Under the pieces are notes generated by a model. The model made no database searches and was not told where the DNA came from. It saw only the letters and a program-made list of their open reading frames with translations. From sequence record PZ239915.1: 36,820 bases of DNA. One strand, given 5' to 3'. Of this stretch, positions 4,752 through 8,660 are shown one piece after another. The DNA is from a phage. How positions within the stretch are numbered: the first letter of the stretch is position 1; each line of letters starts with the position of its first letter. Position numbers and translations under genes: made by a program.

Positions 4752-4928
4752 ATGACTAAAATGATTTATTGCACCAAAAACAACTCCAAGACGCTGCCAT
4801 TTACAGTTAACAAGCCGTACAATGCAGAGTATCAAGGTGACGGATACTACAAGATTTATGGCGACGATATGACGTGGATTTTAGCGCCGATTGATGGTTC
4901 GCTGGTTGAATTTATTATCGCAGACTAG
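4752..4928 (+). CDS. hypothetical protein (58 aa)
   Basis: Track ORF 4677..4928 trimmed to the ATG at 4752 after AGGAAG; promoter box and CATCGAAACGAGA leader upstream. Confidence 0.45.
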   Translation: MTKMIYCTKNNSKTLPFTVNKPYNAEYQGDGYYKIYGDDMTWILAPIDGSLVEFIIAD

Positions 4929-4954
4929 CGCATCTAAAACATAGCTTTACAAGT

Positions 4955-4983
4955 GGGGGGCCTTTTGGCTCCCCTTTTTTTTG
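4955..4983 (+). terminator. rho-independent terminator
   Basis: 8-bp GC-rich stem (GGGGGGCC/GGCTCCCC), 4-nt loop, then a 9-T run. Confidence 0.6.
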
Positions 4984-5047
4984 CTTCTTTTCCGAACAGG
5001 GCTACTGTATCATGTTTACACTAACTTAAACATTGACAAATAGACAA

Positions 5048-5275
5048 ATGGAGGATCACATGAGGGAAGTAATCAACGCCGCTACGGCGTCAACTGGAGG
5101 GGCAGCGGTAACTGGAGCGGCAACTGGTCAGATGACTATAGCAATAATCAGCCTTATCGCTTTAATCATTTTTGGTGCGTGGGGTGCTTACTGGAAGTTT
5201 AAGGATAGCCAGGCGATTCGGCGCGCTCTTGAATCAGGAGACTTAAAAACAGCAATCAAGATAAGGAGTAAGTAA
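5048..5275 (+). CDS. holin (possible dual-start holin/antiholin)
   Basis: Small protein with a hydrophobic stretch TIAIISLIALIIFGAWGAYW and a charged C-terminus, directly upstream of the endolysin. Two in-frame ATGs (MEDHM) four codons apart. Track start 5033 is a TTG. Confidence 0.6.
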   Translation: MEDHMREVINAATASTGGAAVTGAATGQMTIAIISLIALIIFGAWGAYWKFKDSQAIRRALESGDLKTAIKIRSK

Positions 5276-5761
5276 ATGAAGCAGAGGCTGCTAATTAGCG
5301 CGGCTACGGCTGCGGCAATATACATCGCAGCACAGCTTATTGAGCTCGTAGAGGGTGTGGAAAACAAGCCTTACATGGACATTGCTGGAATCCCTACTGT
5401 TTGCTCTGGCGTTACTGGCCCTGACGTTGTTTGGGGTAAGACCTACAGCAACAGGGAATGCCGGAACTTACTGGAGAAGCACATTCAGATTCATGCCAGG
5501 CATGTTCAGAATGCAGTTACCTACCCAATCGCACCTCAGACAAGAGCGGCTTTAATCAGCTTTAGCTACAACGTTGGTGGAAATGCGATGAGGAATTCAA
5601 CGGCAGTTCGACTTATTAATCAGGGTAAAGTTGAGCAGGGTTGCAATGCTCTCGGGATGTGGAATAAGGCTCGGGTTAACGGAAAGCTAAAGGTAGTTAA
5701 AGGCCTAGTTAACAGGAGAAACGAGGAGATTAAGTTATGCTTAAGTGGATTGCAGCGTTAG
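5276..5761 (+). CDS. SAR endolysin (GH24 lysozyme family)
   Basis: Gly/Ala-rich N-terminal signal-anchor-release segment LLISAATAAAIYIAAQLI followed by an E-x-D-x-T catalytic pattern (ENKPYMDIAGIPT); starts one nt after the holin stop. Confidence 0.8.
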   Translation: MKQRLLISAATAAAIYIAAQLIELVEGVENKPYMDIAGIPTVCSGVTGPDVVWGKTYSNRECRNLLEKHIQIHARHVQNAVTYPIAPQTRAALISFSYNVGGNAMRNSTAVRLINQGKVEQGCNALGMWNKARVNGKLKVVKGLVNRRNEEIKLCLSGLQR

Positions 5762-6126
5762 TAGTGTGCGTAGCTTTATCTGGATGCTCAGCAACAGATG
5801 CGCTGACTGGTTTGATTGGAAGTAAGCCGGAAATTAGCGCTCAGGCCGGAGCGGAAAACAATAAGGTTGGTGTTGGGTTAACGAACAAGGTTGACTCCAG
5901 CAGCTCCAGTGAAGCAACTGTTAAAGATTCTAAGGTTGGGTCACTGGATAGCTCGAGCGGGAAAAAGACTGCTGACAACTCGATTAAGGCATCTACAATC
6001 ACCGCAGAAAAGATTGAGATTACCAACAACGACTCATCCGCACTTCCATGGATTGGAACAGGAGCTATGGGGTTACTTGTTTTTATCCTCCTGACTGTAA
6101 TCTTAAGACGTAAAAAAGCCTCCTGA
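5737..6126 (+). CDS. unimolecular spanin (lipoprotein with C-terminal TMD)
   Basis: Lipobox LSGC at the N-terminus plus C-terminal transmembrane segment GLLVFILLTVIL and basic tail; overlaps the endolysin 3' end by 25 nt; AGGAGA RBS. Confidence 0.65.
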   Translation: MLKWIAALVVCVALSGCSATDALTGLIGSKPEISAQAGAENNKVGVGLTNKVDSSSSSEATVKDSKVGSLDSSSGKKTADNSIKASTITAEKIEITNNDSSALPWIGTGAMGLLVFILLTVILRRKKAS

Positions 6127-6142
6127 TGGAGGCTATATTTTT
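6112..6142. terminator. bidirectional terminator between convergent genes
   Basis: AAAAAA, GCCTCC/GGAGGC stem with TGAT loop, then TATATTTTT; sits between the spanin (+) and a minus-strand ORF. Confidence 0.55.
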
Positions 6143-6476
6143 AGCTAAATAACTCGTCGTCAGCCATTGTTCCTATATTCATCATCTCTTTTATGTACTT
6201 GCTTTCATAACCGTTAAGTGCCTCGAAGTTAAACCCAAATGGCCTATTCAAACTCCCCTTGCTAACAAACTCCCCGCACTTACCATCAATGTAACCCATA
6301 CTAAGCATCTTCGCGCAGAACTCTTTTGAAGCCGCGCTGCAAAACTCTCGATGTGATAAACCCGCTGCCTTGCTGAACCTCTCAGAGTCCTTATGCTGGT
6401 ATATGAATCTCGCCAAATGCTGGCGCGTGAAGTATGAATATGACTCGCAGAACTTAAATATATCGAGAAGAAACAA
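6141..6476 (-). CDS. hypothetical protein (TTG start)
   Basis: Track ORF. TTG start lies 5 nt after a GGGAGG inside the HNH gene 3' end. Alternative internal ATG at 6311. Confidence 0.35.
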   Translation of the reverse strand: MFLLDIFKFCESYSYFTRQHLARFIYQHKDSERFSKAAGLSHREFCSAASKEFCAKMLSMGYIDGKCGEFVSKGSLNRPFGFNFEALNGYESKYIKEMMNIGTMADDELFS

Positions 6477-7076: not shown

Positions 7077-8660
7077 TCACCCAAGCAATCTCGGATTAAT
7101 GTAAACTTTATCACCAATCAGGCACGTGTAGTTTTTCTCGTCAAGCATTGGCAGCAAGTGATCTTTAATCTTCGTCATTACCCCCGCCTGGGCTTCGAAA
7201 GGTTTAACCTTGCGCGCCGCCTCGTATAGGGAGCGAATACCTACTACGCCCTTCCCATTTTTGCCTTGCTTGATCAGTATGTCAATCAGCTTGTTCATCT
7301 CTGCACTGTCACCAGCGTGACCAGCGGCGTTAGCAGATGAAAGGTAAGTTTTGCTCAGTTCATTAAATATAATTACAGCCTCCTGCATGGTATCAAGCTC
7401 AATCTCCCTGGACTTCCGCGGACTCCCGCCGTTAGGGTTGAACCAGTTACGAACAGTATGAAGAACAGCCGCAATCCTGATGGCCTGTTTATCAAACTTA
7501 CCCAGCGCGCCTCGCAACATTGTATGTGAATACTTCCCGCCATCAGCAAGGTGAGGTTCCATCTCCTGACGTGCTCGGTTGAGATACTTCATCGCTGAGT
7601 TGCTTACTGTCAGCTTAACATCTTGCTCATTCATTATTTCGTGAACCAGGCGGAAGTAGTCAGCCTTTAGCCCACCATCAATAGGTTCGTAAGTTGAGTC
7701 TCCATTTTCATCAACGAATACACGCTCGCCCAGGAATGACTTTTCACGCACCAGCAGAAAACGTTCCGATACACCGATACCTCGCGCACCAGCATTCATG
7801 ATTGCGTTTATTGTCTCATCTTGCGCAATTACAGAGATGCATCCCATAGCGACGAAACTCATGTTGTTTTCTGCGTTCGCACGCGCAATGGACACGTTAC
7901 CAGCATCCCATGCTTTCAGCACAAGCTCGCTGTTCGTTTTCTTCGAGCCATCACCATAGGTCATACCTAGCAGAGAGTTCACGCTCGTTGCTTCATCAGA
8001 GATAACTGCGAAGTTGCCCTGGCGGTTGTTTATTCGCGCAAGACCTTCAGGCGTCGTATCTGATACTGGAAATACGATATCGCAAAGTTTCTCGAGTTTT
8101 TCCTCTAGTTCCTCTTTCTCTTCGAAGAGAGAAGCCATTTCTGAAGGTGATTTCTCCTGCTTCATCTCTTTGGATAATGCAGATAGTTTAGCCATGATCT
8201 TTTTGCGCTCACGCTTCCGCAACTCATTCAGTCGCTCAGTCTCAGCAATCATTGGAGCAATTGAAAGTGAGTTGATTGCTGATTTACCTGTCGATGGCGG
8301 CTGACTGGTTACGACGTATAGAGAGGTCGGTTGCTGGGTTCCGTGATACTCAACAGTAAATCGCCCCAGCATGGAGGCAGAAATACACCCCAGAAAGTGC
8401 ATATAAGCTGAAGACTCTGGAAATTGAACCGAACGAGCAATATTGGCTGACAGTTTACCAACAACGTCAATATCATTGCCGAGTGAGATTACCGGGTATT
8501 TGTCATTTGCTGCATCAATCTCGACCGGAGCCTTCCAGAATGATTGGGACTGGCGATAGCCATTGGCATTAATGGCGACTCGCAGTGGCGGGAGGTTGTC
8601 TGCGGCAGCAATTGCCATAACCTGTTCAACAGATAGTTTATCTTCGTTGAAATCAAACAT
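7077..8660 (-). CDS. hypothetical 527-aa protein with P-loop-like core
   Basis: Long ORF; deviant Walker A TSQPPSTGKS and Walker-B-like FAVISDEAT in the central region. N- and C-terminal ~45 and ~75 aa are paralogous to the 174-aa protein at 11389..11913. Confidence 0.7.
   Translation of the reverse strand: MFDFNEDKLSVEQVMAIAAADNLPPLRVAINANGYRQSQSFWKAPVEIDAANDKYPVISLGNDIDVVGKLSANIARSVQFPESSAYMHFLGCISASMLGRFTVEYHGTQQPTSLYVVTSQPPSTGKSAINSLSIAPMIAETERLNELRKRERKKIMAKLSALSKEMKQEKSPSEMASLFEEKEELEEKLEKLCDIVFPVSDTTPEGLARINNRQGNFAVISDEATSVNSLLGMTYGDGSKKTNSELVLKAWDAGNVSIARANAENNMSFVAMGCISVIAQDETINAIMNAGARGIGVSERFLLVREKSFLGERVFVDENGDSTYEPIDGGLKADYFRLVHEIMNEQDVKLTVSNSAMKYLNRARQEMEPHLADGGKYSHTMLRGALGKFDKQAIRIAAVLHTVRNWFNPNGGSPRKSREIELDTMQEAVIIFNELSKTYLSSANAAGHAGDSAEMNKLIDILIKQGKNGKGVVGIRSLYEAARKVKPFEAQAGVMTKIKDHLLPMLDEKNYTCLIGDKVYINPRLLG

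Follow-up and report, generated by a model that had tools for sequence, protein, structure and literature searches.

Positions 5060-6126 of the analysed window (the 36,820-nt phage sequence PZ239915.1) very probably make up the late lysis module of a siphophage of the Rtp/T1 type (Drexlerviridae, Braunvirinae), encoding a holin, a SAR endolysin and a unimolecular spanin (u-spanin). Gene structure, homology, motifs, fold and conservation carry this assignment. The three open reading frames were confirmed where the first-pass annotation had placed them, and they are not chance frames, because their products match PHROG and Pfam profiles (E-values of 4e-37 for the holin, 1.3e-35 for the Phage_lysozyme domain and 5e-49 for the spanin), tblastn recovered homologues in other phages (the holin in 727 records, the spanin in 1164), and synonymous differences greatly exceed non-synonymous ones. 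Indeed, all three genes are under purifying selection, with pairwise synonymous/non-synonymous differences of 0.22/0.02, 0.24/0.10 and 0.24/0.09 for holin, endolysin and spanin, respectively. An NCBIfam search with four proteins returned none above cut-off.

The cassette is an ordinary T1-type module and was already known. The genome of Escherichia phage vB_EcoD_SU57 (MT511058, Drexlerviridae), 99.2-99.7% identical to the window and 99.2% identical in DNA over 4900-6200, encodes identical holin and u-spanin proteins within SU57_00067-00069, in the same gene order and with the same ribosome-binding sites, 25-nt overlap and terminator; its record labels the genes holin, endolysin and unimolecular spanin. 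Ten bases differ between the two sequences, nine of them in the intergenic leader (4981-5039), while the tenth is the sole coding difference within the cassette and changes endolysin residue 20 from Pro to Gln (P20Q). The paper on SU57 itself does not mention the lysis genes, and our literature search found no experiment on the present phage or on Rtp-like lysis proteins. T1 genes 13-12-11 have the same order and belong to the same families (58, 46 and 42% identity); T1 also shares the LSGC lipobox, the C-terminal transmembrane domain (TMD), the E-D-T triad and the upstream gp14/DUF7244 gene (PMC6139136), but the overlap of its endolysin and spanin genes is 1 nt instead of 25 nt and its SAR segment contains Gly, which the segment in the window lacks. 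The TLS cassette holN-LysN-rzlA is likewise homologous (51, 47 and 56% identity), with an LSGC lipobox at the same position and an endolysin/spanin overlap of 4 nt. Cassettes with a T1 gp11-family spanin have been described as combining a pinholin, a SAR endolysin and a u-spanin (PMC6139136; PMC13164509; PMC11447400). For the cassette overall the stakes are thus low, as befits a textbook T1-type lysis module.

Table 1. Features of the lysis module and its flanks (window positions).
Feature	Position	Strand	Basis or remark
DUF7244 (SH3-clan) ORF, 58 aa, T1 gp14 homologue	4752-4928	+	Pfam PF23896, E=1.4e-29
Intrinsic terminator between SH3-like gene and lysis genes	4955-4982	+	8-bp GC-rich stem followed by T run
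TGTATCAT block with probable -10 element (TATCAT, 5008-5013)	5006-5013	+	Alignment; invariant in 13 Rtp-like relatives
Upstream in-frame ATG (M1 of MEDHM), most likely no functional start	5048-5050	+	Overlaps Shine-Dalgarno sequence
Holin Shine-Dalgarno sequence GGAGG, 5 nt 5' of ATG5060	5050-5054	+	Duplex energy; SU57 RBS annotated at window 5050-5055
Holin, 71 aa, T1 gp13 family	5060-5275	+	PHROG 2877, E=4e-37; 57.7% identity to T1 gp13
SAR-type GH24 endolysin, 161 aa	5276-5761	+	PF00959, E=1.3e-35; RrrD/R21 relatives
Putative signal-anchor-release segment, codons 5-22	5288-5341	+	Hydropathy; AF2 helix 9-26
Endolysin codon 20, CAG (Gln)	5333-5335	+	Pro in all relatives
Catalytic triad codons E26 (5351-5353), D35 (5378-5380), T41 (5396-5398)	5351-5398	+	E-8aa-D-5aa-T spacing
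Spanin Shine-Dalgarno sequence GAGGAG, inside 3' end of endolysin gene	5723-5728	+	Duplex energy -8.9 kcal/mol
Unimolecular spanin, 129 aa, T1 gp11 family	5737-6126	+	PHROG 1804, E=5e-49
Lipobox L14-S15-G16-C17	5776-5787	+	Same LSGC as wild-type T1 gp11 (PMC6139136)
Spanin C-terminal transmembrane segment W105-L123, then RRKKAS	6049-6105	+	Hessa sum -1.9; AF2 helix 105-127
Bidirectional intrinsic terminator hairpin, overlaps spanin stop codon	6117-6134	.	SU57 annotates terminator here

The first gene encodes a holin of the T1 gp13 type, as indicated by a full-length profile match and by its position directly 5' of the endolysin gene; it ends with a TAA at 5273-5275, and the exact protein sequence was found on 207 contigs. 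The protein's N-terminal segment (V4-G23) is rich in Gly, Ala and Thr and weakly hydrophobic; one strong TMD (M25-W45) comes next, and the C-terminal tail is basic. The holins S21 and EssD of phage 21/DLP12 share this pattern of weak segment, strong TMD and basic tail, but are not related to the present holin in sequence. In the TLS paper, a class II pinholin with two TMDs is proposed (PMC11447400). We see an appreciable, if less than even, chance that the protein instead spans the membrane once (N-out, C-in), and that the pinholin label in T1-like phages reflects annotation by association only. M25-W45 is the only strongly hydrophobic segment (Hessa sum -2.4) and the N-terminal segment abuts it without a loop, with just T22-G23-Q24 in between; TMHMM-based GenBank notes give a single TMD for T1 and KP36; moreover, the protein matches no Pfam holin family and shows no similarity to EssD/S21 (best local BLOSUM62 score 28, confined to the TMD). 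However, the Hessa sum of the N-terminal segment (+6.1) is close to that of EssD/S21 TMD1 (+6.5), a genuine releasable TMD, and the family is called pinholins in Young-lab annotations (Stevie) as well as in the TLS paper. Pairing with a SAR endolysin also speaks against a single-pass protein. The general statement that SAR endolysins pair with pinholins, made in the first-pass annotation, holds as a tendency but not as a rule, since the 46 u-spanin phage genomes with an identifiable endolysin comprise 29 with SAR and 17 with canonical enzymes (PMC6139136). As a T1 gp13-type holin, the product of ATG5060 would build up in the inner membrane and depolarise or permeabilise this membrane at a set time.

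The endolysin ATG directly abuts the holin TAA and is preceded by a Shine-Dalgarno sequence, AAGGAG, at 5263-5268. Among solved structures, RrrD (4zpu) and full-length phage 21 R (3hde) match the endolysin best in sequence, at E-values of about 1e-28, and the phage 21/DLP12 systems (S21-R21, EssD-RrrD) share about 42% identity with it in this gene. An AF2 model (pLDDT 90.5) with a continuous helix 9-26 superimposes on 3hde/4zpu with a TM score of 0.83 over 160-162 columns, N-terminal helix included, and fits truncated R21 (3hdf; TM 0.63) and P1 Lyz (1xjt; TM 0.75) less well. E26, D35 and T41 align with the LEGV...YKDI...WTVC region of R21/RrrD, and each is present in 119/119 homologues having a residue at that position.

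The putative signal-anchor-release segment, LLISAATAAAIYIAAQLI, follows an initial MKQR. It had been noted as weakly hydrophobic and Gly/Ala-rich; the first property stands, while the second needs correction to Ala-rich, as the 18 residues include seven Ala, one Ser, one Thr and no Gly, and no Gly occurs before G27. Its best 17-residue Hessa sum, a crude sum, is +1.7, compared to +0.15 for the RrrD SAR domain, +2.7 for T1 gp12, -1.7 to -2.4 for the TMDs of the cassette and more than +9 for soluble segments. The endolysin has no Cys before C43; with a Cys-free SAR segment, it is of the R21 type rather than disulfide-caged like P1 Lyz. RrrD/R21-type homology, a fold that includes the N-terminal helix and a weakly hydrophobic, Ala-rich segment thus bear out the SAR assignment, in line with the annotation of several relatives' enzymes as SAR endolysins, and release is predicted by analogy. 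From the roughly 42%-identical R21/RrrD, we infer that the protein would not be cleaved and would be released upon depolarisation: Sec would export it, and the weakly hydrophobic N-terminal segment would hold it in the inner membrane in an inactive state until the membrane potential is lost; this segment would then exit the bilayer and, by refolding against the catalytic domain, activate the E26/D35/T41 muramidase.

The P20Q exchange bears on the predicted lack of cleavage. All 119 homologue clusters (119/119) have Pro20, as do T1, TLS, KP36, Stevie and RrrD/R21, and the exact Q20 endolysin is absent from a collection of 15 billion sequences. Residue 20 is the +1 position of the only signal-peptidase-compatible site, following I17-A18-A19. 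The present endolysin might therefore be secreted by way of a cleavable signal peptide instead of being a SAR protein, P20Q having removed a +1 Pro that blocks signal peptidase I. We consider this unlikely, although Q20 is unique among the homologues and I-A-A fits the -3/-1 rule. LepB accepts aliphatic residues at -3, a +1 Pro blocks cleavage, and such a Pro once produced an artefactual 'SAR' result for T4 RI (PMC8385771); RrrD (ITG/P) and TLS (LAS/P) likewise display a compatible site followed by Pro. On the other hand, the site should be a poor LepB substrate, because the hydrophobic helix (AF2 helix 9-26) runs continuously through it and there is no polar or extended c-region. T1 (TLT/P) and KP36 (AFL/P) keep the Pro even without a good -1 residue; the Pro may therefore serve as a structural hinge and not to prevent cleavage. 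In addition, the model matches full-length R21 better than the truncated form, and loss of the segment may leave the enzyme inactive and would then be lethal for lysis. Finally, as a single-base difference, P20Q could stem from a sequencing error. We thus favour an uncleaved SAR endolysin, while noting that, judged from the sequence, predicted non-cleavage is less secure for the Q20 protein (I-A-A/Q) than for any relative (I-A-A/P). P20Q could change either processing or the hinge. Provided that the Pro does prevent cleavage, there is a slim chance that this one residue switches a SAR endolysin to one with a cleavable signal, or to an altered-hinge form; if so, P20Q would alter lysis gating. 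It is the only point in the cassette with some potential, as a possible cheap natural test of how SAR proteins escape cleavage, a live question given that T4 RI was recently reclassified from a SAR protein to one with a cleavable signal peptide.

A hydrophobic alternative-frame ORF of 66 aa is embedded in the endolysin gene (5355-5555); as it contains stops in five close relatives and synonymous variation across it is normal, we take it as a chance frame.

The last gene of the cassette, followed by the terminator, encodes the u-spanin. The protein shares 42.3% identity with T1 gp11 over 123 aligned positions and 55.6% with TLS RzlA/Stevie, which places it in the same family at the threshold of Kongari et al. 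(at least 40% identity over at least 40% of the length). A lipobox and a C-terminal TMD in one polypeptide, together with a 25-nt overlap with the endolysin gene (5737-5761), had been noted for this gene, and all are present. The N-terminus reads MLKWIAALVVCVA-LSGC17-SA; the residue at +2 is Ser, so that an Asp signal for inner-membrane retention is absent. The periplasmic part, which lies between C17 and the TMD, is free of Cys. A single-sequence AF2 model is poor (pLDDT 57), with the middle of the protein unstructured, and is uninformative on the periplasmic domain, which in the gp11 family has a short helix and, after it, four or more beta elements. Identity to gp11, the LSGC motif, the C-terminal TMD and the SU57 annotation of an identical protein together identify a T1-type unimolecular spanin, where phage 21 has a two-component spanin (rzpD after rrrD). 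The 25-nt overlap recurs in 11 Rtp-like relatives with a completed analysis and a located spanin start (in a twelfth, CEB_EC3a, the same script did not find the start), and synonymous change is reduced within it. T1 gp11 complements lambda RzRz1 (PMC6139136). By analogy with T1, phage 21 and lambda, from which the topology in the membrane, the absence of cleavage, the release and the membrane fusion proposed for this module are drawn, the C-terminal TMD would stay in the inner membrane and the spanin would fuse or disrupt the two membranes after removal of the murein.

The first-pass annotation also described the holin gene as having a dual start. Two in-frame ATGs four codons apart (M-E-D-H-M) are indeed present, at 5048 and 5060, but the holin/antiholin interpretation is not supported: ATG5048 lacks a Shine-Dalgarno sequence of its own, is poorly conserved and would add an acidic extension. 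It is very unlikely that both ATGs are used and that the ratio of a 75-aa antiholin to a 71-aa holin sets lysis timing, as for lambda S107/S105 or phage 21 S71/S68. The sole Shine-Dalgarno sequence overlaps and follows ATG5048, whose G is the first G of GGAGG; duplex energies are +0.5 kcal/mol at ATG5048, in the 90th percentile among all ATGs, as against -9.3 kcal/mol at ATG5060 (top 2% of plus-strand ATGs in the window). By comparison, in the essD control (MKSM), one Shine-Dalgarno sequence lies 5' of both ATGs (-7.9 and -7.8 kcal/mol) and the extension adds Lys. Known antiholin extensions, such as those of lambda S107 and S21-71, add Lys and act via the added positive charge; MEDH is net acidic and adds no positive residue. 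The resemblance to lambda S107/S105 is confined to two nearby in-frame ATGs, the position of the Shine-Dalgarno sequence, extension charge, conservation and regulatory RNA structure all being different. An sdi-like RNA structure was sought in 5015-5110 and none was supported (MFE -14.7 kcal/mol, z = -0.03); the sole inverted repeat near the holin start is a 7-nt one, ATGTTTA/TAAACAT (5012-5033).

Eight of 13 sampled close relatives retain the upstream ATG, with MEDH or MEDR, while the other five carry an AAA-GGTGG allele with a 1-nt indel that shifts the frame, and T1, TLS, KP36 and Stevie have no in-frame upstream ATG. The PHROG 2877 profile begins at M5, its positions 1-71 matching residues 5-75 of the MEDHM form. 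Among the 15 listed members of a 174-member holin cluster at 90% identity, all are 71 or 89 aa long and none is 75 aa, although one record, vB_Ec-G8, annotates the 75-aa form. The A-rich, unstructured leader can permit some initiation independent of a Shine-Dalgarno sequence, and the TLS homologue has been suggested to have a dual start elsewhere (M1/M7, 3' of the common start; PMC11447400); the present holin has Ala at the M7 equivalent. The comparison of starts included six loci from an IMG/VR pattern scan, mostly the same isolates as in GenBank. We thus take ATG5060 as the holin start and ATG5048 as most likely a start-like triplet inside the ribosome-binding site, arising incidentally from its AAAUGGAGG variant; an in-frame ATG overlapping a Shine-Dalgarno sequence in this way mimics a dual-start motif and calls for caution. 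TTG5033, with which the listed ORF opens, was rejected as a holin start (no Shine-Dalgarno sequence, +1.5 kcal/mol). Gene callers disagree on holin length, giving 71-, 75- and 89-aa versions.

Anti-Shine-Dalgarno duplex energies at the three starts are uniformly strong (-9.3, -8.8 and -8.9 kcal/mol for holin, endolysin and spanin), and the tightly packed genes would be translated from these three sites. Transcription of the module is probably driven by a promoter just 3' of the terminator at 4955-4982. Judged from sequence conservation, the TGTATCAT block probably holds its -10 element, and the BPROM promoter annotation of SU57 falls on window positions 4985-5013. Between the terminator and the holin gene, a consensus sigma-70 scan gave no convincing promoter, missing the putative TGTATCAT promoter because its -35 is weak; the promoter assignment therefore has the invariant TGTATCAT block as its sole basis. 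At the other end, the hairpin at 6117-6134 terminates both the cassette and the convergent minus-strand genes.

Just 5' of the cassette lies the DUF7244 gene, which the first-pass annotation had left out. For the DUF7244/SH3 gene, a 2026 proposal assigns an accessory 'shell' role in the lysis modules of Drexlerviridae, and the synteny exonuclease-SH3-holin-endolysin-spanin has been described (PMC13164509). We raise a role of the present DUF7244 gene in lysis as a hypothesis only.

Three closely packed plus-strand ORFs occupy window positions 5033-6126, and all the cassette features listed in the first-pass annotation are found in the sequence. The three genes are real: their PHROG and Pfam matches are strong, pairwise synonymous versus non-synonymous differences among 13 Rtp-like sequences are 0.22 versus 0.02 (holin), 0.24 versus 0.10 (endolysin) and 0.24 versus 0.09 (spanin), and their starts, with anti-SD duplex energies of -9.3, -8.8 and -8.9 kcal/mol, respectively, rank in the best 2-3% of the window's plus-strand ATGs. 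In the Rtp-like sequences, synonymous change is lowered in the endolysin/spanin overlap and the terminal hairpin. A 66-aa alternative-frame ORF with a hydrophobic stretch inside the endolysin gene (5355-5555, plus strand) was rejected as a chance occurrence; it contains stops in five close relatives.

Features of the lysis cassette and its surroundings (window numbering)
Feature	Position	Strand	Remarks
DUF7244 (SH3-clan) ORF, 58 aa	4752-4928	+	Pfam E=1.4e-29; just upstream of the lysis genes
GC-rich hairpin and T run (terminator)	4955-4982		upstream of the cassette, between DUF7244 gene and holin
TGTATCAT block	5006-5013		probable -10 region
CATTGACA	5032-5039		
ORF 1 (holin)	ATGs 5048, 5060 (in frame); stop 5273-5275	+	
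SD GGAGG	5050-5054		first G is the G of ATG5048; 5 nt upstream of ATG5060
ORF 2 (endolysin)	5276-5761	+	ATG immediately after ORF 1 TAA
ORF 3 (spanin)	5737-6126	+	25-nt overlap with ORF 2 (5737-5761)
Bidirectional hairpin	6117-6134		overlaps ORF 3 stop codon
HNH_3 endonuclease ORF, 176 aa	6479-7009	-	Pfam E=6.4e-21; between gp10-like gene and DUF3987 helicase-like gene (7077-8660)

The cassette is already known. Its 1.3-kb region matches 95 phage records in all, with 99.2% identity to Escherichia phage vB_EcoD_SU57 (SU57; Drexlerviridae, Braunvirinae) and 86-92% to relatives that include ACG-M12 and Rtp; in a comparison spanning 6.8 kb, window and SU57 differ at 21 positions. The SU57 record carries an RBS at 5050-5055, a holin from 5060, an endolysin at 5276-5761 and a "unimolecular spanin" at 5737-6126, and the Rtp record labels three genes as similar to T1 gp13, gp12 and gp11, to which the present holin, endolysin and spanin are 57.7, 46.2 and 42.3% identical. 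T1 gp11 serves as prototype of unimolecular spanins (u-spanins), with lipobox LSGC, and nearly all members of its family lie in cassettes that also encode a pinholin plus an endolysin of the signal-anchor-release (SAR) type (Kongari et al., PMC6139136); two later papers apply these terms to the T1 and TLS cassettes. Given these records and papers, the architecture is both published and annotated. The first-pass reading is supported in part, for the SAR endolysin and the u-spanin, and fails for the dual-start antiholin.

The endolysin has a Phage_lysozyme (GH24) domain, and its nearest solved relatives are the SAR endolysins RrrD of DLP12 (4zpu) and R of phage 21 (R21; 3hde/3hdf), with E about 1e-28. 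Each of E26, D35 and T41 (spaced E-8-D-5-T) is found in 119/119 homologue clusters. The N-terminus consists of MKQR and an 18-residue Ala/Ile/Leu segment whose hydrophobicity is intermediate (+1.7, versus +0.15 in RrrD and +2.7 in T1 gp12); it had been described as Gly/Ala-rich, of which the alanine holds and the glycine does not, the first being G27. As the segment lacks Cys, regulation would be by R21-type refolding, unlike that of P1 Lyz, which is caged by a disulfide. The AF2 model (pLDDT 90.5) superimposes on full-length R21 and RrrD with TM 0.83 over 160-162 columns, N-terminal helix included, and fits truncated R21 less well (TM 0.63). Every feature accessible in silico therefore supports the SAR type, with non-cleavage and depolarisation-triggered release putative.

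Within the cassette, the coding sequence departs from SU57 only once, in this segment: codon 20 (5333-5335) is CAG (Gln) rather than CCG (Pro). In 119/119 homologue clusters the residue here is Pro, 6 residues ahead of the catalytic Glu, and T1, TLS, KP36, Stevie and RrrD also have Pro 6-7 residues ahead of that Glu; the exact window endolysin is absent from a 15-billion-sequence collection. Position 20 is +1 of I17-A18-A19; where the hydrophobic stretch ends, no other site conforms to the -3/-1 rule. LepB tolerates aliphatic -3 residues and a +1 Pro stops cleavage; owing to such a Pro, the cleavable signal peptide of T4 RI once looked like a SAR domain (PMC8385771). Because Gln replaces this Pro, a cleavable signal has to be considered for this endolysin, alone in its family. 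Yet a polar c-region is missing, AF2 predicts an uninterrupted helix across the putative site, and T1 and KP36 keep the Pro despite a poor -1 residue, which suggests that the family Pro is a structural hinge. We consider cleavage after A19 unlikely, and P20Q is possibly a sequencing error. This variant is the only item worth a cheap follow-up.

The proposal that two in-frame ATGs yield a holin/antiholin pair is contradicted by SD position, conservation, extension charge and RNA structure. The start region reads AAAUGGAGGAUCACAUG; nothing SD-like precedes ATG5048, whose duplex energy (+0.5 kcal/mol) is poorer than that of 90% of ATGs. Our control was prophage DLP12's essD, whose S21-type holin has the canonical dual start (MKSM); there, both ATGs are preceded by one and the same GAGGUGGGG (-7.9 and -7.8). 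At the holin RBS, 8/13 close relatives have AAATGGAGG and 5/13 have AAA-GGTGG instead, with a 1-nt indel that also disrupts the upstream frame; an upstream ATG in frame is lacking in T1, TLS, KP36 and Stevie. Judged from this comparison, ATG5048 is an RBS allele, not a conserved codon. In addition, alignment to the 71-position PHROG holin profile begins at M5, the Met of ATG5060, and RNA around the start is unstructured (z = -0.03). The antiholin character of lambda S107 and S21-71 stems from an added Lys, which slows movement of TMD1; the MEDH extension is acidic. Low-level SD-independent initiation at ATG5048 is conceivable, but a functional dual start appears very improbable.

The resulting 71-aa holin, identical on 207 public contigs, contains a single strong TMD (M25-W45; Hessa sum -2.4), a Gly/Ala/Thr/Ser-rich N-terminal segment (V4-G23, +6.1), with no separating loop, and a basic C-terminal tail. 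The weak segment has nearly the same score as TMD1 of EssD (+6.5), a genuine releasable TMD, which agrees with the label "pinholin" given to Stevie by the Young laboratory and also used in the TLS paper. Against the label speak the missing loop, the lack of sequence similarity to S21 and EssD, and GenBank notes that give the T1 and KP36 holins one TMD. As we found no hole-size experiment for this family, the protein is a putative pinholin, so named by association.

The spanin, an exact SU57 protein, comprises a signal peptide (MLKWIAALVVCVA), the lipobox LSGC17 with Ser at +2, a Ser/Thr/Lys-rich periplasmic region of 87 residues devoid of Cys, and a TMD (W105-L123) followed by RRKKAS. Lipobox and C-terminal TMD in one polypeptide, a PHROG 1804 match (5e-49) and identity to T1 gp11 above the 40% family threshold support the T1-type u-spanin. 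Single-sequence AF2 modelled the terminal helix (105-127); overall pLDDT (57) was too low for the predicted beta-rich periplasmic domain. The 25-nt overlap with the endolysin, as originally noted, is common to the 11 Rtp-like relatives whose spanin start was located by script, compared with 1 nt in T1 and 4 nt in TLS and KP36.

The intergenic leader (4981-5039, 59 nt) holds 9/10 differences from SU57 in 4900-6200 and matches ACG-M12 and one metagenome contig instead, suggesting that a short stretch of the promoter/leader region was exchanged by recombination. TGTATCAT, invariant in 13/13 Rtp-like relatives, probably holds the -10 of the cassette promoter, in agreement with the SU57 BPROM annotation. 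CATTGACA is conserved in the 13 relatives save its last base, which 2725-N35 has as G. The holin starts of TLS and Stevie are likewise preceded by a TTGACA motif; TTGACA was rejected as a -35 for the holin, the start codon being too near. A 2026 paper (PMC13164509) proposes that a "standalone SH3 domain" is an accessory component in the lysis modules of Drexlerviridae; the DUF7244 product matches this component and might have a role in lysis.

Gene calls for the cassette differ among records. Rtp (rtp65) and vB_Ec-G8 start the spanin 3' of the endolysin stop, losing the lipobox; the holin is called with 75 aa in vB_Ec-G8 and 89 aa in metagenome calls, and is unannotated in UALMA_PCEc3. The HNH_3 ORF, hypothetical in SU57, is probably a homing endonuclease. 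"Pseudomonas phage PsgS01F" (PP134917) and "Campylobacter phage A110b" (MG065688) contain the coliphage cassette at 87-90% DNA identity, and for PsgS01F and E. coli phage UALMA_PCEc3 the records are equally long (44,679 nt) and the hits agree in query coverage, bit score and identity (90.0%); both host labels look doubtful.
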